Positions 8,383-44,039 of a stretch of DNA of 64,000 bases are shown here, piece after piece (the first letter of the stretch is position 1; every line of letters begins with the position of its first letter). The position numbers and the translations under genes were made by a program. The stretch lies in assembly GCA_000002435.2 (NCBI GenBank), contig CM018791.1; one strand, written 5' to 3'. Origin of the DNA: Giardia intestinalis (Eukaryota). The notes under the pieces were generated by a model that searched no databases, had not been told where the DNA came from, and saw nothing but the letters and a program-made list of their open reading frames with translations.

Positions 8383-11300
8383 CTACGTCCGAGGCTGCTG
8401 CTCAAATAAGTTCTTAATAAACAGAGCCAATAGTAGCTGTCGCCTCAAATGAACGTCTGCAGAGGAGAGTATCTCCGAAACAGGTAGTATTTGCATGCAG
8501 AGATCGAGCATCTCATTCATCTTTTTCATCAAGGAGGAAGATGGCATGCTCCTGTTTTCAATATAGGTTCTGCGCAGCTCAAACGCATAGTAATATGCTT
8601 GACTAAGGAAGAACGCAGCGCAATCTTTACCCACTCTAACGATCATATGGTAGTCAATATCGTTCTTTTTGGTCTGCACGACCTGCTCGAACTTTTTACA
8701 AAAGGCCTGTAGTACAGAGAAAGCATTGTCTTCTAAGGCACCTAGAATTCCGGACCACTTACTAGTTATATGATTAATCCTAGTTATCAAGATATTGCGT
8801 TGTATCATCAGCTCGTCTTCACGCAGAGGCTGCTCACGGATGAGACTCATGTATCCCAGGGCGTATTGCCAACTATCTTCGGTAAGGGGTTTTTCAAAGA
8901 ACAGATTGTCTTGGGAGTAAAGACCTGCTATATGTTCAAACAAAGCCCGCTCCGAGCCTTCTAAGTTATTCTTTTTGTTGACTACGCTGGGAAACAATTT
9001 GTTGAGAAGCTTAAGGATCACAGATAACGTTTCTTTATATGAGGAGACAGACAATTCATCTCCAGAGGACTTGGTTGGCATTGCAGCAGCATTGCTCGAG
9101 TATCCGATTGATTCCCATCCTGCTCCAAAGGGCGATGCATTGGAGTGCAGCTGTGAGTAACTTCTTTGGGGAGTAATTCCAAAGTGAGACGGGGGTTGAG
9201 CCTGATAATACGGCATATTGAGATAAGGCGATGAGCTCTGGTATCCCAGATGGTCCTGGTTGAGAGTGTGGTACTGCCCAGGACGCAGTTGAGATTCTGG
9301 AGCGCTTGCAGCCCGTGCTCCTGCTAGAGGGTATTGCTGAGTAAGTAGTCGCTGGTGCATGAGGGATCCCTGTTCCGCTTGATATGACATGCTTGCCGGT
9401 CCATAGCCATTGGAGTGGGGATACGCACCGGTTCTCATTGTAAAAGGATCATACCGGGTAGGCGGCGGATACGTCTGGGAGTGTACCCCCGGATAACGTG
9501 GTGCTGGAAGCATGTCAGTTCTTTGGTAGGGCTCCATTCCTCTGCCCTGTCTGCCATAGTATCTGTTGCCTCCCACCGCCCCATACGGAGCTCTTGGTCC
9601 CCCCGGTGCCCCCTGCGGATACTGAAGCTTTTCTTGGGGATAAGCCGTTGCATCGTGGTACTCTCCTGGTTGTCTATGAGACTGTGGGGCGCTACTAGGT
9701 CCGAATTGACCGATTCTTGGACCCATCTGGTAAGGAGGAGTAGGGCCAGAGGTCCCCGGCGTGTGCGTGTACCCAGTGGGCGTAGGCATGGCTCCAAAAG
9801 CGGTTGGTTGCGTGCATGTAGTCTGTATAGAGGGAGAATAGGGTGGTACGTCTACGCTGAATATTTCGTTGAGACGGTTTTCTGGATGTGCTTTCAAAGC
9901 TATAAGCCGTACATGGCTCCTAGAAGCCTGCATAATATTGCGGGATATGTCTATTACACTGTTCAAGTCGTGATTGTAATACTGCTCGTTGAGATTGCTT
10001 AGTAGTATGCGCTCCGTGGCAAGACCATAGATCAAGAGCCGATGCCTCTCTTTAATAAACTCTGCTGTTACAGGGACGCGAATAGCCTGCAGGATTGATG
10101 GCCACCTATCCTTGATAAGAGCCGAAAACTGCTTGATGGCAAATGTGATCTGTTCTGAACTGGGTACTCGTCTGAGACGCTGCAGTAGATCGAAGTTGAA
10201 GAGAAACTCATCTGAAAATAGTGGCACCACAGCCTGCCATGGTATAGCATGCACATAGTACGCGTTCCATCGCTCCTTCAAGACAGGATGGAGCTTGACA
10301 TCACATCGTTGAGTGAGAGTATGGGTGGGGAACAAGAGATTGCACGTGTCGGTGTTGGTACACGCATTGGGGAACTTATTATAGGCTTTTTCGAGCATGA
10401 GCGTAAGTTGCTGGAATATGGGGAGGAGGATCTTGGCTAGCTGGATAGGATTTGTGGTGTGCGAACAGTTGTACTCCTTCTTATCCATCAGAAGCTGCTG
10501 ATACTTACCCCGGTATCGAACGTACGCATGTAGGACCTTCAAATCAGACAATTTTGACCACGCGGAGTGAATCAGCTCCGCCACTGTCATCACAATCTTT
10601 ATATCTTCCTCTGCTACCTGCGGAGCGGGGCTAGCCTTGAGAGCGGCGATATCGTGCAAGTTGAGTCCAAATTTTTCGAGAAACTCAATCTTGCAATAGG
10701 TAAGGTACAACCAACAATTCTTAAGGTCTGTAAGCCCGTATTCCTGGACGGTGAAGAGCGACCTCATTGTCAAGGGCGTTGAATAGTAGCGGCTGGCATA
10801 GGTAGGATCCATCATGCAGTCGTACATATAATCGACATACTCTATCATTAGGTCAATTGCGCAGGCGCTTGGATGAATTCTAAGAACATATTGCTTGATG
10901 GTACTGAAGCTTTGCTGTAACGTCCCCTGTTGTCCGTAGTATTGAGAGCTACGAGATGGTAGCATCCTCGGGTTTATCAAAGAACTTGCCTGAGTATGCG
11001 AGTTAGTGGTGTAGTAAAATGGGGGTAAGTAGTAAGAGATGTTCCATAGTAGTCTATATGCTAAGGCGGCAGGTGAGCATGCGACGTCATTGATGGCCGC
11101 AGTCTCTGGAGAAACAGGTTCCTGTAGGCCTTCATTGGAGGTGTTGGCAGTGTCGGCCTCTGGATTGCTTGCTGCCCTTGGGGTGGTGAGATTTTGAAGA
11201 GAGAAGTCTTCAATGTACTGATTGCAGCATTGAAGCCAGTAATTCTCTACCACAGGGACTTGCTGGATGCCACGGGAAAAGACAGTGGCATACTTTGATC

Positions 11301-14300
11301 CCGTGTTACACAGACACCAATCGAATGAAAATAATAGATAGTTATACCGCACAGAAAGTTCTTTCAGCTTTCCTTGCAAAATTCGAAGCAGGTAAAGATC
11401 GTGTGTGGCCTTACTTATGTCTGTGTTCTGAACATATGGCCGTAACTCATCTGGTAGCTTGCGGCACTTCTTGACCATAAGCCAGAGTATCTGTAGGAAA
11501 GTAACGGAGGCCCGTAGGATAGTGCTAACGGGAAGAGAACGATCCTTAGTTGTCATAAGGAGATATGTGCGAATAATATTCTCATACATCTCCAAGGGCG
11601 TTGTCCCAAGTCCCACACCAATGGACATTATAATCTCGATCAGAAGCTGCCTGTTGTGTTCTGGAATCAGAGTCTCAAAGTCACTGACAAGGGACTCGAT
11701 CTTCTGTTGCTCTACGCTATCGGTGACTAGCCCCGACACCATAAAGTTACTCGACATCAGGGCAGACAGTATAGTATGCTCCTTCATGCTTATGCCGGAC
11801 ACCGGATCCTGAAGAAATACCGCAAGTAGATCCTGTTGGCCAGCCTCTCTCTGAGGGATATACATGTAATTGACTAAGTACCTTAGAAAGAAGGAATCTA
11901 AATCTGTGTGGTCATCGGGGAAACGATAAGGCTCATAAATATAATCGAACAGTCCCCCGTGTAGATATGTTCCGCCAACTACAAGAAACCTCTCGGCCAT
12001 GTGGAGACGGGCTCGTTGTTTTGGAGTACTGTCGCTTTGTTCGCCTAAGCTAAGGTAGCTCCCATCAATCGGCGTTGATTGGTCACGCGACGCAGTGGAA
12101 GGTAACTCGCTAGAAGATCCTTGGGGCAATGGTACAAAGTCCCCCAGTGCAACTGAGAGAGTGTTTTGCACTTTGGAGAAGGCTATCTGGGGGTAGAAGA
12201 TGCTGTTCTGGTTGTCCATGGGATAGGCCCGCATGAGCAGCATCCTAATGGTTCTAAGCACCACATGTAGGAGAACTTTCGTAGGAATTGGAGCAAGCCC
12301 TTGGAGCGTCGCTTGAGGTAGCAACGCGGGAGTGCTTGTAGTTTTAGAATAGATAGCATTATCCTTAAATAAGTCCAACTGGATCTTGCTTGTGGCAGGA
12401 GTTAGAACCATACGGTTATAGGTTTCTGCGATCATATGCGCTGATAATACAGAATTAAGTGCAGGAGACGTGCTGGCACCGTTGTCCACTACCGACGGCT
12501 GCACCAGAGAATTGCTTTTATCCTGGTGTCCTGTGCGCTCTACCAGTCCCGGATGAGTAGAACTAATAGAAGACAGATCCAGTGAGTTCATTAGTGGCGA
12601 GTCATAGATATGAAGATTGGCCGTCGAGAACCGCTCCACATAGAGATTCTCAGTTGCCGGAAGCTGCTTGAGGGAGTCCTGTTCTAACCCGTTGTTTGTA
12701 ATGCTTACTGATGACGTATATCGGAGACTGCATTCCGCAGCTGGAGCCTCATCTGTGGCTTCAAGCTGGGGCTTCATTATAGAATGAGGATAGGGATGGA
12801 CATTGGCAATCCCATAGCGGCGTTGTTCGAAGGGTCGCGGCCTATTGCTTGTTGCACTAGCAGATGGTGAACACAACTTTTGCATAAAGGTCTCAGATAT
12901 ACTATTGCACAAGACTTTGGGCGCGCCATCTTCTGAGGCAGACTGTATTAACGCGAGATAGTCCTGATTTGCTGATATTTCATAATGATAGACACCAAAA
13001 GCTAATCGGTAAATCCATGAATAGTCACAGGAAAAGAGCGTGGTGAAAGAATCCACTGTGAGAAGGCCATCTTGGGCATACGCGTGAACGTACTGATTCA
13101 GTAGTGTAGTGTCCACCAGCGCTAGAGGCGAGCTCATTGAGATGGTACGGATCTTTGCGCGAACCAGTCTGTGGATGTAGACGAGCTGAGGAGTAAATTG
13201 TATGGTACCTAAGTCGGTCAAGGCATGAGCAACGCTGAACTCCAACGTGCTGAAAGTCCTGAAAAGCTCTTGGCAAAGATCTGGTCCTTGCGTCCAACGC
13301 AGAGGTAAAGCTACGGAGTCTTCGTTCTCTAGGTAAAGCGAGATAAGCTGAGGAACATTAGTGAAAAAGTGGTAAATGAGCAGGTTATCAGCAATGACGT
13401 TTGTAGAGCTATATAAGCTTCCCTTGAAAAGATACTCGTTGGACCTACATAATTCGCTAGTATGTAAGAGCTTGCACGGGTGAACTCCATTATACGCTAG
13501 AATTATGCTACTAAATTGTAATAGAAGATGTAAATAACAAGGCGATTCAGGACCCAAGACTAAAGAGTGGCCATAGAGGAAGGTGTGCTTAAGCATAAAC
13601 GCCAAAAAAGAAGCGTCGTCCTTCAGCGTAGATGCAGTATATGAGTACTCATGTCCTCTGGGCCCCCTGGGATCAAGCAGAAAGGCGGGAATGTCGGCAA
13701 GAAGCAGACGAAGGATGACGTAGTATTTAAAGAATATAGAGTTATATCCTAGGGAAGCGAACACGAGGTTGCTGTCGATTGTCTTCAGAAGTGTGTGAAG
13801 CACTGTGCCTGTAATGTCGTACATCTTCAGCCAGTTCTCTGAAAAGACTTTCTTGCATAGGTTGCAGTGACGAAGAAGCCCTCGTAAGGACGAGTAAATG
13901 GGGTATAACGTGTACGGAATGGCAAAGTCCATGGCTGCACATATTGTTTTGTGCCTAAACAGCGCATATGTCTTGGCTAATGCCCGAGAGTACTCTGTCA
14001 CCGTGGACTGCAGTGTATTCTTTTTGATATGCGCAGAAAAGAAGCTTGTCAAGATGTGCAGTACAGCCCTGTTTCCTATGCGATCAAAGGGGTGGCTTGT
14101 CTGGCAAGAGGTGCTCAGCTTTCGTTGTAAAGACATGAACTGTATGTGGATGCTCTCTTGACCGTCTAAAGATGCGACTGTTGTATATAACAGATGGTTC
14201 AATAGCTCACAAACCGCCCGGCCGTAAAGAATATACTCATACCTATATACTAGATGCCCGTACTCATTGGCGATGTCGCTTCTTGTCGTTTTAGCAAAGT

Positions 14301-17300
14301 AGAGACAGGGGACCTGAAGCTCTGAGACACAGCCGACACACTTCTTTGAAAGAATATAGGAGTACGCAGCACTCACGTATGCAAGGGCGTACTCCTCCAG
14401 AACAAAAGCTGGTGTGCCGTGATGTAGCATATTCCTCTTCAGAAGCCCGTCTATCGTGAGGTATACATTAGATGCTAAAGTTTGTGGGAGCCCAGCCTCT
14501 TCTATACACTGTAGACAAAGACTCTCATGCTCATTAGCGCCGCAGTACGACAGACACGTTAAGTTCGATTGGTAAACACCATCCGATAGTATCGTGCTTT
14601 GGCTTTCAAGAGACGATTCCTGATAGAGCTTACACTGTCTAAAAACAGTTTGAGAGTTAGGTGTGATAATGTGCTGCGGGTTGACTGACGGTTTGTTGTC
14701 GAGCTGGCATGCTTGAACGAGGACCTTGACATCCTTCGTGTTTAGATTTGGAGTGGCAAGAAGCCCTGGATCAAACAGCTTCTGACAAATGAAGCAATAA
14801 TACAGTAGTGAGTTGTCTAAACTGGGATAGCTTAAATCTTTGTTACTTCTAGGGAGAGAAAACATAGCAGATGAATCGGCGGCGACGGGTTGCACTCCGT
14901 ACTGCTTTAGCAGCTTACGCTTCTCAGCAGACAAGTCCGCATCCAGCTCTCGAGTGCAGATGTTGTGGCATTCTTGGCATACTGGAAAGGACTTATCTAG
15001 GGTATATAGAGGTGTTAAAACGGATGAGTAACCATTGATGTAGTGCTGGACACTACTAGACTCTTTGAAAGTGTCTACAAAGCCCGCGGATGCTGGCAAC
15101 ATCCGAGGAATGGTGTGCGAAGAAGGATTCATGGAATAGAAGTCCAGTTTTGGCGGTATCGGCGGTTGGATGCTGAGGTTGAAAATATTCTGCATCGATG
15201 CAACCGTCACTTGCATGTCTGTTTGACCCTGGGAGTGCTCAACAGACCCGTCGAAATACGTGTAGAGAAACTCCGTAGGCGTCAACGTGGGGCCTTCAGG
15301 CTTTCGAAATAGTCTACCCATCTTGCTAAATAGGGGCGCGTTGATTGACGAGGTCCCAACTACGTTGCCAGAAATAACAGAAAACGCGGGTGATCCACGA
15401 AAGACATCTGGAGCTGCAGGCTCCTCCGCCCCGTCGTCAACAGAGCCTAGTTCTACTGAAGCTCCTGCGCTGCTCGGCGCTGGTCGAGTCCGCAGCTTCG
15501 ATGGTCCTGCTACGTCTTTTGCTCTCACTGACGTGTTCAGAGAGTCCACCGGGCTGCTTACATCGTTGGAAAACGAAGAATCTCTATGAGATATAGTAGC
15601 AACGGTAGGGGACCCGGCATAATATATGTAAAACGGTGTTGGGTCAAAGACTATTTTCAGAGACTCATAACTCATGCCAGCCGATTGTGGTCCACGGTCT
15701 TTTCTTTTGAGTATTTTGGGACTCTGATGATGCTCTCTATATACGGCTTTTGTCTGCGTGACAGAGGTCAGAGAATGCGATCGTAGAAGGCTCTCGTCAG
15801 TCTTACTCTTGCATGCTTGTACCATGTCTCTGAGTGTCGCTTTCACATTCATGAACAAGTACTGAATGGCCCCCTGTAAGAGCAAATCACAATCAAGCCA
15901 GGCACTGACCGTTCGTCGGACTAGCGGATCTATAAGATAAAGGCTCTGGGGCTTCAGATTTAAGCATGTATCAGTGAGCTTGGACATCTGGTTGCCAATG
16001 TTCGCCTGGTGTTGCTGGAAGGAGGTACAGCTTGCATGCACACAGACTCGTACAAGCTCATGCGTGGAAAACTTAAGAAGACTCTCCTGTAAAGATCTAT
16101 TGCTGAGATCTGCTTTCCGTGTGCCTTGCTTTAAGTCTATGGCTGCACATGTATCAGCAATATAGTCTCTCAATACTATAGATAGGGAATGAACCTCTCC
16201 ATATAGTACGTGGGTTGATTGAAACTGAATCGAGAATAGCGAATCCTCGAGCGAATGCTGGCAAAGATTCTGAAGGATGTATGGTGGCGACACAGAGTGT
16301 GGGGAGCTTTTTGATAATACCTGGTAGTCGTAGCAGAGCTTAGTGAATAGGTGGGCCATAGGCCTGGTACTAACAAATGGCATAGCAGCCAATAGGCTGG
16401 TGAAATCATAACCAGCAGGCACTGGTTTGTTCTTACCCCTTATTACCGGGGGCGTAGTCTGTGAACAGGCCTCGCTGAAAGCAAGTAGCATGAGCAGCAG
16501 CGTCTCTGGAACGACAGACACAACAAGGTCACTGGTTAAATTATCTGAAGCAGTTGTGCCTGCATTGCCTACTGCGTCCCTTATGTGTTGATAGTATGCC
16601 GGATAGGGAGCACCACTGCCAGTATCACCATTGCTGTTGGAGCAGTTAGCTTGTAGTTCTACTGCCTCTAAATCTGGTACGAAGATAGAGTCGAAAAACA
16701 CCGAAAGAAGCAAACGATTGAGTGCGTAAGTAGCAAGCTTGCGCATACTAAACGTGTCGTCGTCTGCATTTGATATCGATGCCAAAAGGCGTTCAGAGAC
16801 AGTCTTTTCGATAGTAGCAGATGTAAGCATGGTCAACACGTCCACCACAGTAATCCTTCCCGAATAGACATACCGGAGAAACACAAGGGTAGGCTTCACC
16901 ATAATATCAGGAACAAGGTACACCAGTGCAGTCTTTGTCCGGATAAAGATGGCCTGCGAAATAGCGTTAGAAAGCCCGGCTGCCTTTGCAAGCTTTACAG
17001 AGTGATCTGAGAAAAGCACACCCTGACACATAAACGCACTTGTCAATGCAGAGATCTGAAGAGCTCTTGACTGGGCGAGGTGCAAAGAATACACTACGAG
17101 GGAGTCAAAAAAAGCGTGCTCATTAATGTCAGCAAAGCCCGACGGATCCAGTTTAAAGTGCTTATTATATTCCTCACCGAGGCTTAGGCACGCATCTGTC
17201 CAGAGATAAATTAATAGCTGGAAGACGGCGTAACGAGCAACGGTGATGTATAATGGGTAGGATATTTTTGCCAGCGTATTCGGAACTTCTATCTCAAGAT

Positions 17301-20300
17301 ACCGCTTAAGCAGGGCTGGGCGAGAGTCATCGAAAATCACACGCCTAACGTTGGCGTCAATATCGAGGAATGTTCGCTGCAGAATGATTTGATCGAAGGT
17401 CTGCTGCATAATAAATACAAAAGATGGCTGAATAGAAGGCCTAGATGACAGAAACTCCTGCAGTTCAGCACACATCTCGGTGCTGAACTTGGATACTGAA
17501 AGAAAGTCCAATTGAAGCGCCGACAGTCTACTTGCACCAGAGGACTCAGAAGATACCGATACACTGCTTGAAGATGTGTCTTTGGCTGTTAAGGCTTGAA
17601 GCTCACTCAGCTCTTGCTGCTGAATGTAATCGGGGTTGTGAGCAATTAAGCCGCAGCCACATACAAGTCCGCTGGAGCACCGCACAGTGTTTAAGACGCT
17701 GCTTGATGATACCGATTCAATACTTCTCCTCAGCACCGTAGATCCAAATGGGGTTAAGGCAACGTTAAGCTGTCTGAGAAGACTGGCTGGAATATGAAGC
17801 CTAGCTACTTCATCGTCCAAGTTGTACGCTTGTATGTGAAGAAACAGGACAGAAAAAATTCTGTACGGGGTGTGTCTAGAGACGGCGTCGGTTGCCTTCT
17901 GCTTGATGTCATTGTAAAACTCGGTGCACTTGCGCCTATACTCCTCTATAGTGGATATCTTCACTTGGTCACGTGGATAGCCTGCGAAATATATGCTCAT
18001 GTTGCTAAGATGGCGCGACAGGTCAGTCGCCGTGTCAGCTGGCCTATTCTTCTCCCGTATATTTGTGAACACAGCCAGCTCTGCAGCGACTATCTGCGAG
18101 TGAACAGCCTCTGGCAGATAACCAGCGTCCAGAAAGTCTAGTAGTGCAAATGTGAGCATGATCTGAACAGGCTTTATAGCAGCGCTACTATCCATACCGA
18201 ACATGGAACTTAAGGCCTCTGAAATCAACTGAAACGTCGACAGCAACGTGTTTTTGGGAATGTGAATTAAAAATGACAGAATGGTTAAGCCCGCATGGAA
18301 CACATCCGCATCCATGGAGCTGAGCGACAGCAAAGCCTCTCTCAAAAGATCTATGGGGGCTTTCTCAGAGAGGCTAATGTTTGCTACTTTGGTAAGGGGC
18401 TCTGTAGTAAAGAGAGGGAACTCTTTACGCCCGGCAAAAAACCTGTATTTCGATGTAATGTTGTAACAACAATCAAGGTAATTGTACTGCTGCGGCGTCA
18501 TCTCCAAAGCTTCCTCTACAAAGATGCTTTCAAAGGGGATTTGGGAGAACACGTCTAAAAGTCTCATTGCCGCCTGAAAAGAGGCCACAATAATATAAGC
18601 AGGGAGTTGCTGGCAGATACGTTTTATAGATAAGACCTGTTTGCCATTTCGTTGAAAGAGTACAGTATCCGATGGATTCATCTTCAGGTGTGGCTCCACA
18701 AAGGTCTGTGAGAGAGGCTCTTTGACTACCTCGAACTCATTAGATGTACCATCACTCTTGCAGGGCTTGATGTAATAGTTGTGACAATCTTCTAAGTAAC
18801 CATCTAAATCTATTGCCTCTTGCAATCCGAGCTTTAAGGTAGCCGACGGTGAATTTGCTGATTGCTGAATATCATGAATTGCCTGCTCTTCCGGGAGCTT
18901 AGCATGTGCAACCCTTAATTTGAAATTGCACACATTACACCACACCCCCATAATAATAGAACACGCACACTTAGATATGGTCAAGACAGGCGAGCATGCG
19001 CTCCATCGTAATTGGTACCCTGTTTCGTTGAGGAGTTGCAGTCTCCGGGTAAAGTTTCCACTATTCTTTTGTGGCCACGTGGCACAGAGATGGTTGCCCT
19101 TTGCAGCATTCTTAAGGATGGCACGCTCGAGGGCGGTGTACTGTCGCAGATCTGAAGTGTTGCCACCGGTCTCTGGTCGTGCCTTAATAGTCTTGGTCTG
19201 AGATTTTCTAACAGCTGTGACAGCGCTCAGAGGTTGTTGCTTTAATACCCGAGGATCAGAGGGTTTCGAGGCCCGCTTTAATGCTTGCGATTTAAAGTTT
19301 GCACCAAAACCGCAAGAAAGAAGGGATTTAGCATCTAATGCACACAATTCGGGTGACGTCCTCGCCGCGGGAGCGCATCTATCCGCACTATCTTGATATA
19401 GAACTGAGGATATGATTTCTGCCGTAGAAACTCCTTGCGGAACCAAAACGTCTGCAACGCTGTCAGTCTGCCTAAGTGACCTAATAAACGAAGACAGAGA
19501 GTCTGAAACATTAGAAGACAAAACGGGGGACTGAAGCAGGTCAGACTCCTTCTTGATACGCGGGGGCCTGCCACGAGTAGGCGCGCTTTCTGTTACGACC
19601 AACTCCTCTGATAACTGATGCTGACACGGACAGTTATTAAGCTCACAGGTATCACACTCACTGGTCGTTCTTTTAGGTAGATCTGAAGATGTGGTAAAGA
19701 TATATCGACGTATAAAATCTATGGATGCAGAATCACTCGAGCAGTAGAGAGCATATTGATTCAGCTGTATATTGGTGAGCTCGTTGCTCCAGTTAATAAG
19801 ACGCTCATCAGTGCTAACAACGATCAAAATTGGTCGTTCTAAAGGTAAGAATGATGTGTATTCGTGGCTATCATCGCCACACCCCTCTTTATTATTGCTA
19901 GCCAGGATCTTCTGGACATTTGTTACAAATTCCGCCGGCGTAGAATTCATCGTCTCATGGATTGCAGGGTCCATTGGCTGAAATGATAGCTTTTCGCCCT
20001 TTTCGTGGTAGGGAACATTGTATTGGTATATCTTTGGAAACTTTCTTGTGCTACATCCATCTTGCTGTTGCTTTTCTTTCTCTAAGCTCTTGACAGACAT
20101 GAAGTACGCAGCGTATGGAACTCGCCCAGAGGGTAGATTAGAGTCCCAGAAAGGGGTTGAATATGCCTTGCTGATAGTCGCATACTCGTTAAACTTAAGG
20201 AAAGTGCAGAACAGCTTTGTTGTGAGCGGATATGGTCCTCTCTTTGAACCGGTGGCGGCATCTGCACGTGACTCAATAACGCTGAACCACGAACTGCCCA

Positions 20301-21465
20301 GACAGTTATGGATCGCTCTTCCAAAGAACGGTCGAAACAGTCGGTAGATAGCTATGTTGGAGAGGATCTCGGATACGTTGGATGTTGATCTAAGAAAGAG
20401 AGAGTAGGGTATGTGTATTTTATACAACTGTTGGCTATCTATGAGAGGGATAATGCTCTGTGCCTTGTTGCGAATAGCAAAGAGTTCGAATAGTGTAGCG
20501 AAACTTGTACTGAAGATCTTACGGGCCAGGAAGAACGAGTTCCTGTAGCAACGGCAGGCCTTGGAAATGAGAAGGCAATTCTCTGTGTATATGTAGAAGT
20601 ACAAAGCGTGTAAGCCATACGGAACAAAGAGGATGCGCTCCCAGAAACGTTCGCTGACCGACAGATTCTTCCAAGTTACAAGTCCATAGACATTAATAAT
20701 TTCTTCTAACGTTGGTATGATTATTCCACGATGTGATTTCTCTCTAAGTGCATTGAAGCAACAGGAGTACTTCTGGATATTATAAATATATATCGGAGAC
20801 GAACTAGACAAAGATGGGAGTATCGAGAAGGGCCAGGGATCGCTTGAGTTTGTAATGGTGCCAGCACTAGAAGTGGTGTGTTCAGGAGAGCTAAGAGCCT
20901 GATCAAAGTATATCGAGGAGACCTGTCCAAAGAAGCGCTGTTCTACGACGTCCAAGCTCAGCCCAGGACCGGATCCTTGCTTAGTGACAGGGTTGTACCA
21001 CATATGAATCTTTTCAACCAAATAGATAAAGTTGGAGACGAATTTTACGTCGCCTTGAGTCAGCTCTTGCTGTGTGCTAGGGTCCAACTGGATGATTGGA
21101 GGCCGATAGTTTCTTTGCTCAATAGTAGACGGTGCACCAGCACCTCTTGGTGGGCTCATATTCATACCGGTAGAAAGCCTAGTTTCAATCTGCAAAATAT
21201 AGTCCTTGAGGGCTCCCCCGAGAGCTGGGTATGTAAACCAACAGAAGTGCATGCTTGATAGGCCTGCTATCCCACAAAGATACTTGTGGTGCTCCAAAGA
21301 CCCCTTTTCATCTTGAGTCGTCGACCCAACTGAAACCGCAGGGGACTTGGCCATAAGATGGCTGGCGTACTTCCCGATGGCCTCATTCACAAGCGGTTTG
21401 CTTTTTATAACGTACTTTATGTAGCTTTCAATGAGCTGGTTGGCACTAAGGGCCTCCCGTGGCAT
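8383..21465 (-). CDS. Giant hypothetical protein (4360 aa) with a Q/P/Y/G-rich low-complexity segment near the C-terminus
   Basis: A single 13,083-nt ORF without stops. Chance occurrence is negligible. The ATG lies 8 bp from the divergent SGNH hydrolase ATG. I recognise no family. Confidence 0.8.
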   Translation of the reverse strand: MPREALSANQLIESYIKYVIKSKPLVNEAIGKYASHLMAKSPAVSVGSTTQDEKGSLEHHKYLCGIAGLSSMHFCWFTYPALGGALKDYILQIETRLSTGMNMSPPRGAGAPSTIEQRNYRPPIIQLDPSTQQELTQGDVKFVSNFIYLVEKIHMWYNPVTKQGSGPGLSLDVVEQRFFGQVSSIYFDQALSSPEHTTSSAGTITNSSDPWPFSILPSLSSSSPIYIYNIQKYSCCFNALREKSHRGIIIPTLEEIINVYGLVTWKNLSVSERFWERILFVPYGLHALYFYIYTENCLLISKACRCYRNSFFLARKIFSTSFATLFELFAIRNKAQSIIPLIDSQQLYKIHIPYSLFLRSTSNVSEILSNIAIYRLFRPFFGRAIHNCLGSSWFSVIESRADAATGSKRGPYPLTTKLFCTFLKFNEYATISKAYSTPFWDSNLPSGRVPYAAYFMSVKSLEKEKQQQDGCSTRKFPKIYQYNVPYHEKGEKLSFQPMDPAIHETMNSTPAEFVTNVQKILASNNKEGCGDDSHEYTSFLPLERPILIVVSTDERLINWSNELTNIQLNQYALYCSSDSASIDFIRRYIFTTSSDLPKRTTSECDTCELNNCPCQHQLSEELVVTESAPTRGRPPRIKKESDLLQSPVLSSNVSDSLSSFIRSLRQTDSVADVLVPQGVSTAEIISSVLYQDSADRCAPAARTSPELCALDAKSLLSCGFGANFKSQALKRASKPSDPRVLKQQPLSAVTAVRKSQTKTIKARPETGGNTSDLRQYTALERAILKNAAKGNHLCATWPQKNSGNFTRRLQLLNETGYQLRWSACSPVLTISKCACSIIMGVWCNVCNFKLRVAHAKLPEEQAIHDIQQSANSPSATLKLGLQEAIDLDGYLEDCHNYYIKPCKSDGTSNEFEVVKEPLSQTFVEPHLKMNPSDTVLFQRNGKQVLSIKRICQQLPAYIIVASFQAAMRLLDVFSQIPFESIFVEEALEMTPQQYNYLDCCYNITSKYRFFAGRKEFPLFTTEPLTKVANISLSEKAPIDLLREALLSLSSMDADVFHAGLTILSFLIHIPKNTLLSTFQLISEALSSMFGMDSSAAIKPVQIMLTFALLDFLDAGYLPEAVHSQIVAAELAVFTNIREKNRPADTATDLSRHLSNMSIYFAGYPRDQVKISTIEEYRRKCTEFYNDIKQKATDAVSRHTPYRIFSVLFLHIQAYNLDDEVARLHIPASLLRQLNVALTPFGSTVLRRSIESVSSSSVLNTVRCSSGLVCGCGLIAHNPDYIQQQELSELQALTAKDTSSSSVSVSSESSGASRLSALQLDFLSVSKFSTEMCAELQEFLSSRPSIQPSFVFIMQQTFDQIILQRTFLDIDANVRRVIFDDSRPALLKRYLEIEVPNTLAKISYPLYITVARYAVFQLLIYLWTDACLSLGEEYNKHFKLDPSGFADINEHAFFDSLVVYSLHLAQSRALQISALTSAFMCQGVLFSDHSVKLAKAAGLSNAISQAIFIRTKTALVYLVPDIMVKPTLVFLRYVYSGRITVVDVLTMLTSATIEKTVSERLLASISNADDDTFSMRKLATYALNRLLLSVFFDSIFVPDLEAVELQANCSNSNGDTGSGAPYPAYYQHIRDAVGNAGTTASDNLTSDLVVSVVPETLLLMLLAFSEACSQTTPPVIRGKNKPVPAGYDFTSLLAAMPFVSTRPMAHLFTKLCYDYQVLSKSSPHSVSPPYILQNLCQHSLEDSLFSIQFQSTHVLYGEVHSLSIVLRDYIADTCAAIDLKQGTRKADLSNRSLQESLLKFSTHELVRVCVHASCTSFQQHQANIGNQMSKLTDTCLNLKPQSLYLIDPLVRRTVSAWLDCDLLLQGAIQYLFMNVKATLRDMVQACKSKTDESLLRSHSLTSVTQTKAVYREHHQSPKILKRKDRGPQSAGMSYESLKIVFDPTPFYIYYAGSPTVATISHRDSSFSNDVSSPVDSLNTSVRAKDVAGPSKLRTRPAPSSAGASVELGSVDDGAEEPAAPDVFRGSPAFSVISGNVVGTSSINAPLFSKMGRLFRKPEGPTLTPTEFLYTYFDGSVEHSQGQTDMQVTVASMQNIFNLSIQPPIPPKLDFYSMNPSSHTIPRMLPASAGFVDTFKESSSVQHYINGYSSVLTPLYTLDKSFPVCQECHNICTRELDADLSAEKRKLLKQYGVQPVAADSSAMFSLPRSNKDLSYPSLDNSLLYYCFICQKLFDPGLLATPNLNTKDVKVLVQACQLDNKPSVNPQHIITPNSQTVFRQCKLYQESSLESQSTILSDGVYQSNLTCLSYCGANEHESLCLQCIEEAGLPQTLASNVYLTIDGLLKRNMLHHGTPAFVLEEYALAYVSAAYSYILSKKCVGCVSELQVPCLYFAKTTRSDIANEYGHLVYRYEYILYGRAVCELLNHLLYTTVASLDGQESIHIQFMSLQRKLSTSCQTSHPFDRIGNRAVLHILTSFFSAHIKKNTLQSTVTEYSRALAKTYALFRHKTICAAMDFAIPYTLYPIYSSLRGLLRHCNLCKKVFSENWLKMYDITGTVLHTLLKTIDSNLVFASLGYNSIFFKYYVILRLLLADIPAFLLDPRGPRGHEYSYTASTLKDDASFLAFMLKHTFLYGHSLVLGPESPCYLHLLLQFSSIILAYNGVHPCKLLHTSELCRSNEYLFKGSLYSSTNVIADNLLIYHFFTNVPQLISLYLENEDSVALPLRWTQGPDLCQELFRTFSTLEFSVAHALTDLGTIQFTPQLVYIHRLVRAKIRTISMSSPLALVDTTLLNQYVHAYAQDGLLTVDSFTTLFSCDYSWIYRLAFGVYHYEISANQDYLALIQSASEDGAPKVLCNSISETFMQKLCSPSASATSNRPRPFEQRRYGIANVHPYPHSIMKPQLEATDEAPAAECSLRYTSSVSITNNGLEQDSLKQLPATENLYVERFSTANLHIYDSPLMNSLDLSSISSTHPGLVERTGHQDKSNSLVQPSVVDNGASTSPALNSVLSAHMIAETYNRMVLTPATSKIQLDLFKDNAIYSKTTSTPALLPQATLQGLAPIPTKVLLHVVLRTIRMLLMRAYPMDNQNSIFYPQIAFSKVQNTLSVALGDFVPLPQGSSSELPSTASRDQSTPIDGSYLSLGEQSDSTPKQRARLHMAERFLVVGGTYLHGGLFDYIYEPYRFPDDHTDLDSFFLRYLVNYMYIPQREAGQQDLLAVFLQDPVSGISMKEHTILSALMSSNFMVSGLVTDSVEQQKIESLVSDFETLIPEHNRQLLIEIIMSIGVGLGTTPLEMYENIIRTYLLMTTKDRSLPVSTILRASVTFLQILWLMVKKCRKLPDELRPYVQNTDISKATHDLYLLRILQGKLKELSVRYNYLLFSFDWCLCNTGSKYATVFSRGIQQVPVVENYWLQCCNQYIEDFSLQNLTTPRAASNPEADTANTSNEGLQEPVSPETAAINDVACSPAALAYRLLWNISYYLPPFYYTTNSHTQASSLINPRMLPSRSSQYYGQQGTLQQSFSTIKQYVLRIHPSACAIDLMIEYVDYMYDCMMDPTYASRYYSTPLTMRSLFTVQEYGLTDLKNCWLYLTYCKIEFLEKFGLNLHDIAALKASPAPQVAEEDIKIVMTVAELIHSAWSKLSDLKVLHAYVRYRGKYQQLLMDKKEYNCSHTTNPIQLAKILLPIFQQLTLMLEKAYNKFPNACTNTDTCNLLFPTHTLTQRCDVKLHPVLKERWNAYYVHAIPWQAVVPLFSDEFLFNFDLLQRLRRVPSSEQITFAIKQFSALIKDRWPSILQAIRVPVTAEFIKERHRLLIYGLATERILLSNLNEQYYNHDLNSVIDISRNIMQASRSHVRLIALKAHPENRLNEIFSVDVPPYSPSIQTTCTQPTAFGAMPTPTGYTHTPGTSGPTPPYQMGPRIGQFGPSSAPQSHRQPGEYHDATAYPQEKLQYPQGAPGGPRAPYGAVGGNRYYGRQGRGMEPYQRTDMLPAPRYPGVHSQTYPPPTRYDPFTMRTGAYPHSNGYGPASMSYQAEQGSLMHQRLLTQQYPLAGARAASAPESQLRPGQYHTLNQDHLGYQSSSPYLNMPYYQAQPPSHFGITPQRSYSQLHSNASPFGAGWESIGYSSNAAAMPTKSSGDELSVSSYKETLSVILKLLNKLFPSVVNKKNNLEGSERALFEHIAGLYSQDNLFFEKPLTEDSWQYALGYMSLIREQPLREDELMIQRNILITRINHITSKWSGILGALEDNAFSVLQAFCKKFEQVVQTKKNDIDYHMIVRVGKDCAAFFLSQAYYYAFELRRTYIENRSMPSSSLMKKMNEMLDLCMQILPVSEILSSADVHLRRQLLLALFIKNLFEQQPRT

Positions 21466-21473
21466 TTTTTAAA
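21466..21473. promoter_or_regulatory. AT-rich core (TTTTTAAA) of a bidirectional initiator between divergent start codons, embedded in the near-palindrome GGCATTTTTTAAAATGCC
   Basis: The minus-strand ATG is at 21463-21465 and the plus-strand ATG at 21474-21476. Giardia promoters are short AT-rich initiators abutting the ATG. Confidence 0.5.
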
Positions 21474-22208
21474 ATGCCAAACCTGCCCGTTCCTCGCATC
21501 ATCTGTCTGGGAGATTCGATTTCCCAGTACGGGTGGAACATTGCCGAGGGAGGGTTTGTCGGTCTCCTAGCAGAGGCCTACTCTCCTAAGGCTGACGTTA
21601 TATGCAGGGGTCTTAGCGGGTTTACGTCTGAAATGCTTCTCCACTACATGTCCAACAGCAATCTTTTGGACTCCTTAGACTGCAAGGGCCAAAGTACTTC
21701 CATCCTATATGTAACGGTGTGCATTGGTGCCAACGATGCATCGTCGTCTGCGCAGAATCCCATTCAAAGCGTACACATTTCCAAATACAGGAAGAACCTC
21801 GTCGATATTCTCAGGTTTATACACGCAGCAGGAGTTCCATACGATCGCATCATTGTTCTGGCTCCTCCTCCGATTGCAGACCCTGCCCAACACCCATGCC
21901 TCCATGAGAAAGGCAAGTCGCCGCACCTTACAGAGGAATATGCACAAGCATGCCTGGAAATTGCTAAGGAAGTCGGGGCCCGTCCTGCAGATGTACGGCT
22001 CCTCTGGGATAAAGCAAGCTCTATCTGGACAGATGGGCTCCACATGAATCGGAGCGGAAACAGGCTGCTTTTCCAGGCCATAATGGATGCGTGTGGCACT
22101 GATCTGCGCCCGGAGAGTATTCCGTTCCCGTGGACACACTGGAGCCAGTATAAGACCGCCACTATGGAACAGAAGACTGACACTAATCATACTAAACGCC
22201 TCAAGTAA
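21474..22208 (+). CDS. SGNH/GDSL-family hydrolase (isoamyl-acetate esterase-like)
   Basis: SGNH blocks are present: ICLGDSIS (block I, catalytic Ser), CIGANDA (block III) and DGLHMN (block V, Asp-x-x-His). The ORF track begins at an upstream GTG. The first ATG is at 21474. Confidence 0.75.
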   Translation: MPNLPVPRIICLGDSISQYGWNIAEGGFVGLLAEAYSPKADVICRGLSGFTSEMLLHYMSNSNLLDSLDCKGQSTSILYVTVCIGANDASSSAQNPIQSVHISKYRKNLVDILRFIHAAGVPYDRIIVLAPPPIADPAQHPCLHEKGKSPHLTEEYAQACLEIAKEVGARPADVRLLWDKASSIWTDGLHMNRSGNRLLFQAIMDACGTDLRPESIPFPWTHWSQYKTATMEQKTDTNHTKRLK

Positions 22209-36987: not shown

Positions 36988-39804
36988 ATGTTGGTAGGAT
37001 TTCTCTTAGTTTTTGTGGTAACACAGGCCAACTGCGCACAAGAGCTGACCCAGGCAGGCTGCAAGACGTGTGTCGGGGCAGACGCCGCCCAGACGTGTAC
37101 GGAGTGCACAACTTCTGGACACAAGGTACAGCTCGATAAAAGAAGCTGCGGCCCCACCTGCCCGGCGCACTCCACGGCCAGCTCGAACGTCTGCGAGTGC
37201 GACCAGGGATACACGCCCAACGCCGGGAAGACCGCGTGCGAGCCCAATCCCAGCGCGGGATGCGCACAAGAGCTGACCCAGGCAGGCTGCAAGACGTGTG
37301 TCGGGGCAGACGCCGCCCAGACGTGTACGGAGTGCACAACTTCTGGACACAAGGTACAGCTCGATAAAAGAAGCTGCGGCCCCACCTGCCCGGCGCACTC
37401 CACGGCCAGCTCGAACGTCTGCGAGTGCGACCAGGGATACACGCCCAACGCCGGGAAGACCGCGTGCGAGCCCAATCCCAGCGCGGGATGCGCACAAGAG
37501 CTGACCCAGGCAGGCTGCAAGACGTGTGTCGGGGCAGACGCCGCCCAGACGTGTACGGAGTGCACAACTTCTGGACACAAGGTACAGCTCGATAAAAGAA
37601 GCTGCGGCCCCACCTGCCCGGCGCACTCCACGGCCAGCTCGAACGTCTGCGAGTGCGACCAGGGATACACGCCCAACGCCGGGAAGACCGCGTGCGAGCC
37701 CAATCCCAGCGCGGGATGCGCACAAGAGCTGACCCAGGCAGGCTGCAAGACGTGTGTCGGGGCAGACGCCGCCCAGACGTGTACGGAGTGCACAACTTCT
37801 GGACACAAGGTACAGCTCGATAAAAGAAGCTGCGGCCCCACCTGCCCGGCGCACTCCACGGCCAGCTCGAACGTCTGCGAGTGCGACCAGGGATACACGC
37901 CCAACGCCGGGAAGACCGCGTGCGAGCCCAATCCCAGCGCGGGATGCGCACAAGAGCTGACCCAGGCAGGCTGCAAGACGTGTGTCGGGGCAGACGCCGC
38001 CCAGACGTGTACGGAGTGCACAACTTCTGGACACAAGGTACAGCTCGATAAAAGAAGCTGCGGCCCCACCTGCCCGGCGCACTCCACGGCCAGCTCGAAC
38101 GTCTGCGAGTGCGACCAGGGATACACGCCCAACGCCGGGAAGACCGCGTGCGAGCCCAATCCCAGCGCGGGATGCGCACAAGAGCTGACCCAGGCAGGCT
38201 GCAAGACGTGTGTCGGGGCAGACGCCGCCCAGACGTGTACGGAGTGCACAACTTCTGGACACAAGGTACAGCTCGATAAAAGAAGCTGCGGCCCCACCTG
38301 CCCGGCGCACTCCACGGCCAGCTCGAACGTCTGCGAGTGCGACCAGGGATACACGCCCAACGCCGGGAAGACCGCGTGCGAGCCCAATCCCAGCGCGGGA
38401 TGCGCACAAGAGCTGACCCAGGCAGGCTGCAAGACGTGTGTCGGGGCAGACGCCGCCCAGACGTGTACGGAGTGCACAACTTCTGGACACAAGGTACAGC
38501 TCGATAAAAGAAGCTGCGGCCCCACCTGCCCGGCGCACTCCACGGCCAGCTCGAACGTCTGCGAGTGCGACCAGGGATACACGCCCAACGCCGGGAAGAC
38601 CGCGTGCGAGCCCAATCCCAGCGCGGGATGCGCACAAGAGCTGACCCAGGCAGGCTGCAAGACGTGTGTCGGGGCAGACGCCGCCCAGACGTGTACGGAG
38701 TGCACAACTTCTGGACACAAGGTACAGCTCGATAAAAGAAGCTGCGGCCCCACCTGCCCGGCGCACTCCACGGCCAGCTCGAACGTCTGCGAGTGCGACC
38801 AGGGATACACGCCCAACGCCGGGAAGACCGCGTGCGAGGTGGCCTCTAACACGCAGTGTAATACTCCCAACTGCAAGATCTGTGATAACCCCAAAACAGA
38901 CAATGAAATCTGCACTGAATGTAATGACGGCGACTACCTCACTCCAACAAAGCAGTGTACGCAAAGCTGCGGAGCAATAGGAAGCTACTACAACGGAGAC
39001 AAAGTGTGCGAGCCCTGTAATCCTAGCTGTGCTGCGTGCACCACAAAGGGACCAGCGAAGTGCACGCTGTGTCCTCCCGGGAAGAGGCTCCAGTACACAG
39101 ATGAGAACAGTCCATCAAGCGGTACTTGCGTAGATGAGTGCAAGCCCCAGAGTGGAGCTAGCGGATGCGAGACCTGCGGAGCCACCATCGGAGGGACAAA
39201 GTATTGCTCGAAGTGCAGCACATCCACGGAGGTCCCCGTCAACGGAGTCTGTACAGCAGACAATGCCCGCGCGCCCGTATGCTCGAAAAAGGACAATCAG
39301 GGAGGGTGCACTACGTGTGCCAGTGGGTACTTCCGCCAGGACAACGGCTGCTATAAGACTGACAGACAGCCAGGCAAACAGATATGTACACTAGCTGATA
39401 GCAATGGTGGATGTCAGGCGTGTGCCAATGGTCTTCCTCCTAGTTCTTCTGACGTATGCCCCTCGTGTCATTTCACCTGCAAGACATGCTCGACCGCAGA
39501 CACTGCAAATACTTGTACAACGTGTGCAACTGGGTACTATATGGTCGGATCAGCAGCTGGACCATGCACTTCGTGTGACAGCAACAGTGGAAGTGTCAAG
39601 GGAGTTGCTGGCTGCATGAGCTGCGCTCCTCCATCTAATAATCAAGGCTCCGTCCTTTGCTACCTCATAAAGGATACCGGTAGCACCAACAGGAGCGGCC
39701 TCTCCACGGGGGCCATCGTGGGGATCTTCGTCGCAGTCATCGTTGTTGTGGGGGGCCTTGTGGGCTTCCTCTGCTGGTGGTTCCTGTGCAGGGGGAAGGC
39801 GTAG
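36988..39804 (+). CDS. vsp: Variant-specific surface protein (VSP) with a signal peptide, about 8 identical 76-aa Cys-rich repeats, a unique CxxC-rich region, a TM helix and a CRGKA tail
   Basis: The N-terminal signal is MLVGFLLVFVVTQANC. There are abundant CxxC and GGC motifs. The C-terminus is GLVGFLCWWFLCRGKA followed by a stop, then ACTTAGGTAGTAAAC 13 nt later. Confidence 0.92.
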   Translation: MLVGFLLVFVVTQANCAQELTQAGCKTCVGADAAQTCTECTTSGHKVQLDKRSCGPTCPAHSTASSNVCECDQGYTPNAGKTACEPNPSAGCAQELTQAGCKTCVGADAAQTCTECTTSGHKVQLDKRSCGPTCPAHSTASSNVCECDQGYTPNAGKTACEPNPSAGCAQELTQAGCKTCVGADAAQTCTECTTSGHKVQLDKRSCGPTCPAHSTASSNVCECDQGYTPNAGKTACEPNPSAGCAQELTQAGCKTCVGADAAQTCTECTTSGHKVQLDKRSCGPTCPAHSTASSNVCECDQGYTPNAGKTACEPNPSAGCAQELTQAGCKTCVGADAAQTCTECTTSGHKVQLDKRSCGPTCPAHSTASSNVCECDQGYTPNAGKTACEPNPSAGCAQELTQAGCKTCVGADAAQTCTECTTSGHKVQLDKRSCGPTCPAHSTASSNVCECDQGYTPNAGKTACEPNPSAGCAQELTQAGCKTCVGADAAQTCTECTTSGHKVQLDKRSCGPTCPAHSTASSNVCECDQGYTPNAGKTACEPNPSAGCAQELTQAGCKTCVGADAAQTCTECTTSGHKVQLDKRSCGPTCPAHSTASSNVCECDQGYTPNAGKTACEVASNTQCNTPNCKICDNPKTDNEICTECNDGDYLTPTKQCTQSCGAIGSYYNGDKVCEPCNPSCAACTTKGPAKCTLCPPGKRLQYTDENSPSSGTCVDECKPQSGASGCETCGATIGGTKYCSKCSTSTEVPVNGVCTADNARAPVCSKKDNQGGCTTCASGYFRQDNGCYKTDRQPGKQICTLADSNGGCQACANGLPPSSSDVCPSCHFTCKTCSTADTANTCTTCATGYYMVGSAAGPCTSCDSNSGSVKGVAGCMSCAPPSNNQGSVLCYLIKDTGSTNRSGLSTGAIVGIFVAVIVVVGGLVGFLCWWFLCRGKA
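37033..38836 (+). repeat. Tandem array of 7.9 perfect copies of a 228-bp in-frame repeat inside the VSP
   Basis: Period 228 nt. The copies are nucleotide-identical; alternate-frame ORFs are identical in every unit. The last unit diverges at about 38837. Confidence 0.9.
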
Positions 39805-43296: not shown

Positions 43297-44039
43297 ATTG
43301 TCGTGGATACTAACTTTTTAATTAAGCGAGTTAATTCAATACGGAATTCTACCGGATGGTTACCCGCCGTGTGAATCAACCCGAGAGATTTACTTGCGAG
43401 AACTCTCTTCACGGCCGTGAATGGCGGTCTCTAAGTTCCAGGCGGGGCGGGCCGACCAGGAGCTCATCCATTTCTCGGCGGTGGGCAGTACACCCCCTCC
43501 GGCGCACCTGCCCGTGCCAGAAGGCGTGCACAGAATGATCGGAGATGCAGCTGCGCTGTGGTTGTTGCATCCAGAGTGCAGACATGGAGGTAGTATATGC
43601 CTGCCAAGACAGCACACGACTTCCCTACAGCTCCTTGGCGTGTCGGCGCGTGAAGACAGAGGGCCAGCCAGGGTGAATGTCGTGGCCGGCCAGCTGCACA
43701 TCAGCTTTAGCTCACGGCCCAGAGAGCATTCAGTCGCCTGTTACCGGACGGGCCTGTCTGGTAGATCGTTGGCCCAGACCGCGGTGTTCGAGTCGTCTGG
43801 GCACATGGGAGAGCCCTGCCTTCGTCTGCTGTGTGTGGTCTCTTCAACGATGCGCAGAATGTGGGTTGCGCGACATCCAGACCGTCGCAGCCTGCGTCTG
43901 GTGGGCCCTGCGCTGTGCCGTGGTTGAGCATGCTACACGCTCTAGACATGACGGTCTCGTCACTGACCAGGCTCCGGCCATTAGCTGCTCCTACCGACCA
44001 CTCTTCGCCAACCACCAAGCAAGCCGGGGTCTCCAGTCC

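Follow-up and report, generated by a model that had tools for sequence, protein, structure and literature searches.

A 64,000-nucleotide stretch of contig CM018791.1 of Giardia intestinalis (NCBI GenBank assembly GCA_000002435.2), in the following referred to as the window, carries on its minus strand one open reading frame (ORF) of 4360 codons, and this raises the question of what a protein of such a size does in Giardia and whether it belongs to any known family. A first-pass annotation, made from the letters alone, had described the product as a candidate large scaffold with a prion-like tract preceding a compact C-terminal region, and had not been able to place it in any family of giant proteins. 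The analysis described here shows that the ORF is a real, conserved and transcribed protein-coding gene, GL50803_113592. The favored reading of its product, to which an even chance is given, is that of a non-catalytic scaffold of the Giardia clade which carries a decayed SNF2-type N-lobe and a flexible tail studded with tyrosines. The ORF is already public as a hypothetical protein, while the SNF2-like remnant, the family of five lineages, a four-cysteine (C4) site and the quantification of the tail appear to be undescribed.

A conserved and transcribed gene of 4360 codons

An exact-sequence look-up identifies the ORF as GL50803_113592 (XP_037901799.1, UniRef D3KHJ6) of G. intestinalis WB, and every source that names this gene or its orthologues DHA2_152465 and GSB_153044 labels it "hypothetical protein". 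Translation of positions 8383 to 21465 yields one stop codon only, the terminal one, so that the single uninterrupted frame of the first-pass annotation is borne out, and both peptides quoted there are present. The second-longest ORF in the window comprises 1306 amino acids (aa), and the chance of 4360 sense codons in a row, calculated from the base composition of the window, is about 1e-95. Interruptions of the frame in other isolates were looked for; none was seen in more than 30 assemblies or in any of the five lineages described below. The two sequence clusters retrieved by the look-up comprise 37 proteins of independent assemblies, with lengths of 4334–4361 aa in almost every case.

The orthologue of assemblage B shows 73% identity along the entire protein and has conserved gene neighbors. 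Between assemblages A and B the proportion of synonymous differences (pS) is 0.70 and thus saturated, that of non-synonymous differences (pN) is 0.14, and the ratio of the two substitution rates (dN/dS) is about 0.08 overall; it is low in each 200-aa window with estimable dS, the low-complexity tract included. Transcription is documented by the RNA sequencing (RNA-seq) tables of PMC8866875, in which the gene has a log counts per million (logCPM) value of 7.38 and is mildly up-regulated in four metronidazole-resistant lines. The protein columns of the same tables are all NA for this gene. No peptide of GL50803_113592 was found in the supplements of five proteome data sets, some tables of which are incomplete so that this absence is not conclusive, and 113592 is not mentioned in a Giardia context in the paper texts searched. 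The first-pass annotation had named an interruption in other isolates, or RNA or protein evidence against expression as one unit, as what would speak against the ORF; with the frame intact, under purifying selection and transcribed, neither is seen at the DNA and RNA levels.

The start codon lies in an AT-rich context (CATTTTAAAAAATG), and an AT-rich initiator-like element abuts it upstream (Table 1). Giardia promoters are short AT-rich initiators beside the ATG. A divergent GDSL-lipase ORF (21459–22208, plus strand), if read from its first GTG, overlaps the ATG of the giant gene by 7 nucleotides. In assemblage B the lipase orthologue is shorter by 10 aa; the true spacer therefore measures just some tens of bases, which suggests a very compact bidirectional promoter between the two genes.

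Distribution of the family

When aa 2680–3879 were compared by HMMER with 1.84 billion representative proteins in an exhaustive scan, six proteins were matched, all of them relatives. Four of these are fragments from G. intestinalis, and the cluster of one fragment includes a full-length protein of 4365 aa with 63.5% identity to the query. The fifth is GMRT_14184 of G. muris (3423 aa, "hypothetical"), and the sixth is a protein of 4301 aa from Logan assembly SRR31929897, denoted P0034 here. Assemblage A, assemblage B, the 63.5%-identical lineage, GMRT_14184 and P0034 constitute the five lineages compared throughout. They are collinear end to end, with identities to the query of 73, 64, 27 and 23%, respectively. 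A word-seeded database search with P0034 returned no match but P0034 itself. As far as can be seen from these comparisons, the family is confined to the Giardia clade; the finding of relatives in this clade only, together with the collinearity of the lineages, indicates that it is old within the clade and not detectable outside of it.

P0034 is the most divergent member (23–24% identity). Its gene occupies positions 4547–17452 of contig L002 (18,437 bp) of SRR31929897, which has a GC content of about 50% and tightly packed intron-less genes. A Meckelin-domain gene and PTH2 lie on either side of it, so that there is no synteny with the Giardia genes.

At an expectation value (E) of up to 10, Pfam gave no match for the whole protein, for ten overlapping chunks of 480 aa, for the G. 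muris protein or for P0034. Likewise, PDB sequences were not matched by the single sequence, by a profile of five orthologues or by a full-length profile of the five lineages. The signature domains of TRRAP and the PIKK family (FAT, PI3K, FATC), of BEACH proteins, of midasin (AAA+ ring, MIDAS) and of Vps13 (chorein-N, VPS13 repeats) were found neither by Pfam at this cut-off nor with the PDB profiles. The earlier statement that none of these giant-protein families can be recognized therefore holds, whereas the broader one, that no family can be assigned at all, is now only partly true in view of the probable SNF2-type N-lobe and the C4 site.

A probable remnant of an SNF2-type N-lobe

Two segments, aa 546–563 and 957–989, resembled the SNF2 motifs Ia and II by eye and were logged as a lead before testing. 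N-lobe and C-lobe profiles were then built from 120 fetched ISWI-type proteins (39 sequences in the C-lobe profile) and compared by hhalign with 220-aa windows sliding over the whole protein, 104 windows for the Giardia profile and 103 for P0034. With the N-lobe profile, the best eight of the Giardia windows are located at aa 361–740 (template 45–97) and aa 801–1140 (template 54–160), and the best four of the P0034 windows at aa 401–740, where the alignment is contiguous over 113 columns (template 45–158). The scores of these windows are 24–28 (top 27.65) versus a mean of 14.2 with a standard deviation of 2.6, and the observed values were attained in 0/150, 0/150 and 1/150 shuffles.

In the Giardia protein the two matching parts (aa 500–596 and 944–1100) are separated by a poorly conserved, lineage-specific insertion, which harbors the cysteine clusters C604xxC607x4C612xC614 and C833xC835x7C843xxC846, is shorter in G. 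muris and is absent from P0034. After removal of this insertion, the Giardia-only profile aligns to the N-lobe with an hhalign probability of 85% and a score of 44.2 over 116 collinear columns (z 9.5), a score reached by none of 200 column shuffles; inclusion of P0034 gives a probability of 88% and a z of 12.7, and the two alignments have 116–117 collinear columns. For comparison, 400 random ordered two-segment splices from the rest of the protein do not exceed a score of 20.0 and a probability of 1.2%.

The motifs Ia, II and III are found in order and with family-like spacing, which is native in P0034. In part 1 the motif I position reads NNKEGCGDDSH, with ILASNNKEGCG corresponding to ILADEMGLGKT in SNF2 proteins and the GKT absent, followed by the motif Ia-like sequence PILIVVSTDERLINWSNEL. 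Part 2 has IPFESIFVEEA at the position of motif II, with VEEA for DEAH, and KYRFFAGRKE at that of motif III; across the lineages the motif II position is occupied by VEEA, VDSP or MDNS.

SNF2 proteins were also retrieved by a search agnostic to family, in which a profile of four sequences of this region, with lineage-specific insertions removed, was run against 177,635 distinct PDB sequences. With the exception of an artefact from a tandem haemoglobin, SNF2 ATPases alone were matched, and at the right motifs: ISW1 with E = 0.053, INO80 with E = 0.17–0.5 (residues 570–687), EP400 with E of about 1 and an ISWI-like protein with E = 1.7. For the compact region of P0034, AlphaFold2 gives a low-confidence model in which a five-fold alternation of β-strands and α-helices is present only at residues 488–625, and its strands coincide with the hydrophobic runs of motifs Ia, II and III. 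Because MAFFT alignments of the N-lobe region are unstable across the lineages, correspondences derived from hhalign were used here. As controls, the α/β proteins GDSL hydrolase and RHD3 GTPase do not pick the candidate region; a single SNF2 sequence does not pick it either, so that these controls are of low power. Taken together, these results are mixed but on balance speak fairly strongly for an N-lobe, and for an N-lobe only: aa 500–596 and 944–1100 are, judged from their profiles, probably the remnant of an SNF2-type RecA1 lobe.

Two further candidates were rejected. A second site in P0034 (aa ~1303–1334, equivalent to query aa 1724–1762) scores 23 against the Q-motif/motif I region of SNF2 (YQ..GL....ILA.EM); as it lies downstream of motifs II and III, has 7% identity and contains no GK[ST], it was judged a chance match. 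In the conserved block aa 1340–1540, SNF2 C-lobe motifs IV–VI had been read by eye at aa 1372–1470. This reading was withdrawn for lack of HMM (hidden Markov model), hhalign or structural support: a PDB profile search of aa 1325–1560 gave no SNF2 match, and the equivalent region of P0034 is modelled as all-helical.

A tyrosine-studded tail and a helical C-terminal domain

The Y/P/Q/G-rich tract of about 250 aa, placed at roughly 9.2–9.9 kb by the first-pass annotation, is confirmed in front of the C-terminal region and extends over aa 3880–4125 (window 9091–9828), which amounts to 6% of the protein. Proline makes up 14.2% of the tract, glycine 11.8%, glutamine 10.2% and tyrosine 9.3%, compared to 5.7, 4.0, 5.1 and 5.0% in the whole protein, and the tract shows no tandem repeats at the DNA level. 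AlphaFold2 predicts it to be wholly disordered, with a predicted local distance difference test (pLDDT) value of about 30 and no secondary structure. A comparable tract of 250–380 aa directly precedes the last 185–240 residues in each of the five lineages.

The tyrosines of the tract are 83% conserved, compared to 54% for the tract overall. In the query, the distances between its aromatic residues vary less than under random placement (standard deviation 4.3 vs 7.4, P = 0.0015), and even spacing with P < 0.03 is observed in four of the five lineages. Short islands, among them YQAEQGSLMHQ, PTRYDP and GEYHD, do not differ at all between the two assemblages A and B. Conserved and evenly spaced aromatics, low charge (10–14% charged residues) and predicted disorder are, at the level of sequence, the features of an aromatic sticker-and-spacer tract. 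The designation "prion-like", in contrast, overstates the composition: disorder and low charge are present, but a strong Q/N enrichment is not, since Q and N together amount to 11.9% in the query (7.5–17.2% across the lineages), and proline (10–14%) is the first or second commonest residue, which sets the tract apart from prion domains rich in Q/N. A more fitting description is that of a disordered linker, rich in proline and low in charge, with conserved tyrosines at even distances.

Several further observations concern this region. RG/RGG-like motifs (GNRYYGRQGRG) are found inside the tract at aa 3965–3976 (window ~9538–9573, minus strand). Methylarginine is reported to be absent from a group of organisms that includes Giardia (Emery-Corbin 2020), in which case regulation of a tract bearing RG/RGG motifs would need other modifications. 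P0034 possesses a second, internal P/Y/G/M-rich tract (aa ~2735–2887), of which there is no counterpart in Giardia. Opposite the low-complexity tract, an antisense ORF of 195 aa with a GTG start (9415–10002, plus strand) most probably owes its existence to the biased composition, as selection acts on the minus-strand frame.

The compact region said to follow the tract is found as well. The C-terminal domain of about 225 aa is conserved in the five lineages, with a motif [AG]Y.[YH]A[FY][ED][LT]R at aa 4290–4298, and AlphaFold2 models about nine helices at aa 4140–4355 with pLDDT values of 35–78. It has no sequence match in the PDB, and Foldseek returned generic helical repeats only (best E = 0.16).

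Origin and function of the giant protein

The favored reading proposes that a decayed SNF2 RecA1 lobe with motifs Ia, II and III is situated about 500 aa from the N-terminus and that catalysis has been lost. The protein would then be a pseudo-remodeller, i.e. a non-catalytic scaffold, probably within a nuclear or chromatin-associated complex, in which the helical body and the putative zinc site may dock partners and the tyrosine-studded tail could serve as a flexible, multivalent and weakly sticky tether to the C-terminal module. SNF2 ancestry rather than convergence, a role as scaffold, a nuclear location and this behavior of the tail are what we infer from the features described above. A non-enzymatic scaffold, as had been supposed from the outset, remains the best functional reading, and we know of no class of giant pseudo-remodellers so far.

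A number of observations weigh against SNF2 ancestry and at the same time favor the main rival, an orphan scaffold that would be an invention of the Giardia clade or diverged beyond recognition, with an N-lobe likeness that is convergent or due to chance. Every SNF2 E-value in the PDB profile search is sub-threshold, unspliced single-lineage HMM searches for SNF2 similarity are negative, and HMM-versus-sequence support is gone without the combined spliced profile. PF00176 (SNF2-rel_dom), which real ISWI proteins carry, has no match at E ≤ 10 in the query, the G. muris protein or P0034, in line with the general lack of Pfam matches. Neither a Walker A motif ([AG]xxxxGK[ST]) nor a DExH motif (DE[AC][DH]) exists anywhere in the proteins of the five lineages. 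The sliding hhalign comparison with the C-lobe profile gives no signal over the whole protein, in Giardia or in P0034, so that the second lobe is missing together with all catalytic residues. Structure models of the SNF2-like region are of low confidence and structural tests uninformative; Foldseek places the model nearest to generic flavodoxin/CheY-type folds. The Ia and II blocks are alike enough to confuse MAFFT, and patterns of a hydrophobic strand followed by a helix recur in many α/β domains. The functional claim as such is based on one profile-profile result plus inference.

On the other side, an orphan origin has to account for 116 collinear columns with three motifs, natively spaced in P0034, and for the recurrence of the match at equivalent sites of lineages that share only 24% identity. 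The score is far above those of 200 shuffles and 400 random splices, SNF2 is the only family in the agnostic PDB search, and unrelated α/β templates, albeit as low-power controls, do not pick the region. The orphan scaffold is thus regarded as possible, though less probable than the remnant of an SNF2 lobe.

A more specific form of the SNF2 reading would see in the protein a descendant of an SWR1/EP400/INO80-type remodeller that lost ATP hydrolysis in the Giardia lineage, conceivably after the loss of H2A.Z in metamonads, and that was retained and enlarged to about 4,300 aa as a purely architectural hub, with a tail organizing a nuclear assembly. Remodellers of the SWR1/EP400 type have H2A.Z as their substrate, and Giardia is without it (PMC8015243), so that such a protein could conceivably have lost its catalysis; this is context and not evidence, and the proposal is held to be doubtful.

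The properties of the tail could instead be taken as the key to the whole protein, in line with the phase separation that the first-pass annotation had named as pure speculation. The protein would then be a hub whose tyrosine-rich tract drives the formation of condensates, with a body that only brings clients and without any link to chromatin. Conserved and spaced aromatics are the sticker-and-spacer pattern of phase-separating low-complexity domains, and the tract agrees with this in its disorder, its low fraction of charged residues (10–14%), the 83% conservation of its aromatics and their even spacing in four of five lineages. Proline is, however, among its top two residues (10–14%) and Q+N reaches only 7.5–17%, the tract makes up only 6% of the protein, and its conserved short islands bear a closer resemblance to the docking motifs of a tether, for which reasons a condensate-forming hub is considered unlikely.

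An active, highly divergent SNF2 remodeller is very improbable: the N-lobe similarity and the invariance of R1467 and other residues of aa 1340–1540 across the lineages could be cited in its favor, but Walker A and DExH are missing in all five lineages, motif II is degenerate and a helicase C-lobe is not detectable. With the GKT of Walker A and the DExH gone and no second lobe to be detected, it is unable to act as a motor. An artefact, be it a chance ORF, a fusion of neighboring genes or a pseudogene, is effectively refuted, as the lack of peptides in the proteome supplements searched stands against a chance-ORF probability of about 1e-95, the same frame of 4334–4365 aa in dozens of independent assemblies with a counterpart in G. 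muris, a dN/dS of about 0.08 per window, transcription, and synteny in assemblage B.

Comparison with known systems

In order to compare the giant protein to known systems, SNF2 ATPases (ISWI, INO80, EP400), low-complexity domains and proline-rich linkers were considered. With the SNF2 ATPases it shares the collinear motifs Ia, II and III and a predicted β-α alternation at this site. It differs from them by the lack of a Pfam match, Walker A, DExH and a detectable C-lobe, and it is three to four times longer than typical members. Furthermore, the Giardia lobe is split by a Cys-rich insertion of 350 aa between motifs Ia and II and not between the two lobes.

SWR1, EP400, SRCAP and INO80 are very large proteins. 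Their ATPase is located in the N-terminal half, a long extension behind it serves as assembly platform, and EP400 and its relatives have Q/P-rich low-complexity regions near the C-terminus. INO80 provided the longest PDB alignment, and EP400 is among the matches. Members of the SWR1/EP400/INO80 group are active ATPases, however, with an HSA domain, a SANT domain (EP400) and an ATPase that is complete although split, and no counterpart to any of these is detectable in the giant protein; for HSA, Pfam gave no match at E ≤ 10 in the query, the G. muris protein or P0034.

The tail resembles domains of the FUS/hnRNPA1 type in being disordered and low in charge, with conserved and evenly spaced tyrosine or phenylalanine residues in a background rich in G, S, Q and P. 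Unlike in these domains, proline is among its top two residues, Q+N amounts to 12%, and no RNA-binding domain was detected in the protein. The proline-rich regions of Sec31 and ALIX are linkers with tyrosines in front of a helical end domain. By this description the tail is similar to them, as a P/Q/G/Y-rich tether to a helical C-terminal module with short docking motifs, whereas no sequence or domain relationship of the giant protein to Sec31 or ALIX was found.

Overall architecture

The giant protein is for the most part a long, non-repetitive and largely helical platform, in which neither internal repeats nor transmembrane segments were found. Conservation is blocky, with the highest values at aa 241–420, 961–1440, 2401–2580, 3061–3420, 3541–3600 and 3721–3840, separated by weakly conserved linkers (aa 601–940, 1561–1800, 1921–2040 and 2881–3000). 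Within the N-terminal conserved region, which has no Pfam or PDB match, aa 241–420 show 81–91% identity between assemblages A and B, and many of its residues are invariant across all five lineages. The conserved region of the C-terminal half falls within the stretch used as HMMER query. The C4 site is probably a zinc-ribbon-like pair of knuckles, as suggested by the pattern of its cysteines; the loop between them varies from 15 residues in G. muris to about 57. In another conserved block at aa ~1724–1762 (window ~16180–16296, minus strand), P1728, Q1732, E1740, H1752 and E1757 are invariant. The features of the gene and its product are listed in Table 1.

Table 1. Features of GL50803_113592 and their positions in the window.
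Feature	Window position	Strand	Remarks
Complete coding sequence of GL50803_113592	8383..21465	minus	4360 aa, ATG start, stop at 8383–8385
AT-rich initiator-like element CATTTTAAAAA	21466..21476	minus	abuts ATG upstream; sequence read
N-terminal conserved region, aa 140–470	20056..21048	minus	most conserved block
Probable SNF2-like N-lobe remnant, part 1, aa 500–596	19678..19968	minus	hhalign, template 45–97, score 25.7, 0/150 shuffles
Lineage-specific insertion, aa 597–943	18637..19677	minus	poorly conserved, Cys clusters
Probable SNF2-like N-lobe remnant, part 2, aa 944–1100	18166..18636	minus	top hhalign windows vs N-lobe profile
Conserved block, aa 1340–1540	16846..17448	minus	SNF2 C-lobe by eye, rejected
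C4 site, C2163xxC2166 ... C2224xxC2227	14776..14988	minus	invariant in all five lineages
C-terminal-half conserved region, aa 3040–3870	9856..12348	minus	blocks of 83–91% A/B identity
Disordered P/G/Q/Y-rich tract, aa 3880–4125 (246 aa)	9091..9828	minus	composition, AlphaFold2
All-helical C-terminal domain, aa 4130–4360 (~225 aa)	8386..9078	minus	alignment, AlphaFold2

Neighboring genes

The neighbors of the giant gene in the window encode ankyrin-repeat proteins, NEK-like kinases, a hybrid-cluster protein and a VSP, a gene content that confirms Giardia as the organism. The VSP gene (938 aa, 36988–39804, plus strand; PF03302, E = 8e-94) is located in a block of 60% GC, in which several long ORFs run antisense. 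The protein-coding genes are accompanied by one gene for 5S rRNA, which is complete (41161–41280, plus strand; RF00001, 88.3 bits, E = 1.6e-18). At about 44000–46000 the GC content rises to 65.6%, compared to about 48% elsewhere, and ORFs overlap on both strands (43677–44897 and 44937–45767 on the plus strand, 44040–44849 and 44062–44922 on the minus strand); the 406-aa ORF in this spike has no Pfam match, and an Rfam scan of 41–48 kb is empty there.

The window starts within a dynein heavy-chain gene, of which a fragment with AAA_8 and MT stalk (14–1309, plus strand) runs off the window start. Further genes encode an RHD3/atlastin-type GTPase of 1051 aa (47663–50818, plus strand) and a queuine tRNA-ribosyltransferase (54341–55549, minus strand). 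An ORF of 1160 aa (50827–54309, minus strand) has no Pfam match, and the ORF of 1306 aa (56409–60329, minus strand) has a weak Vps41-type RING match below the cut-off at its C-terminus (E = 5e-4).

Implications

The chromatin and transcription machinery of Giardia is reduced and divergent, and most of its large "hypothetical" proteins have been left untouched. If the SNF2-type lobe is indeed a remnant, the giant protein would be a concrete and testable entry point to the question of how remodeller scaffolds evolve after losing their enzymatic job, and likewise to what organizes nuclear complexes in Giardia. Its tail offers a natural case of a conserved disordered tract with tyrosine stickers in an organism reported to be without arginine methylation. 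Should the link to SNF2 be wrong, GL50803_113592 still encodes a clade-restricted and strongly constrained protein of 4,360 aa.

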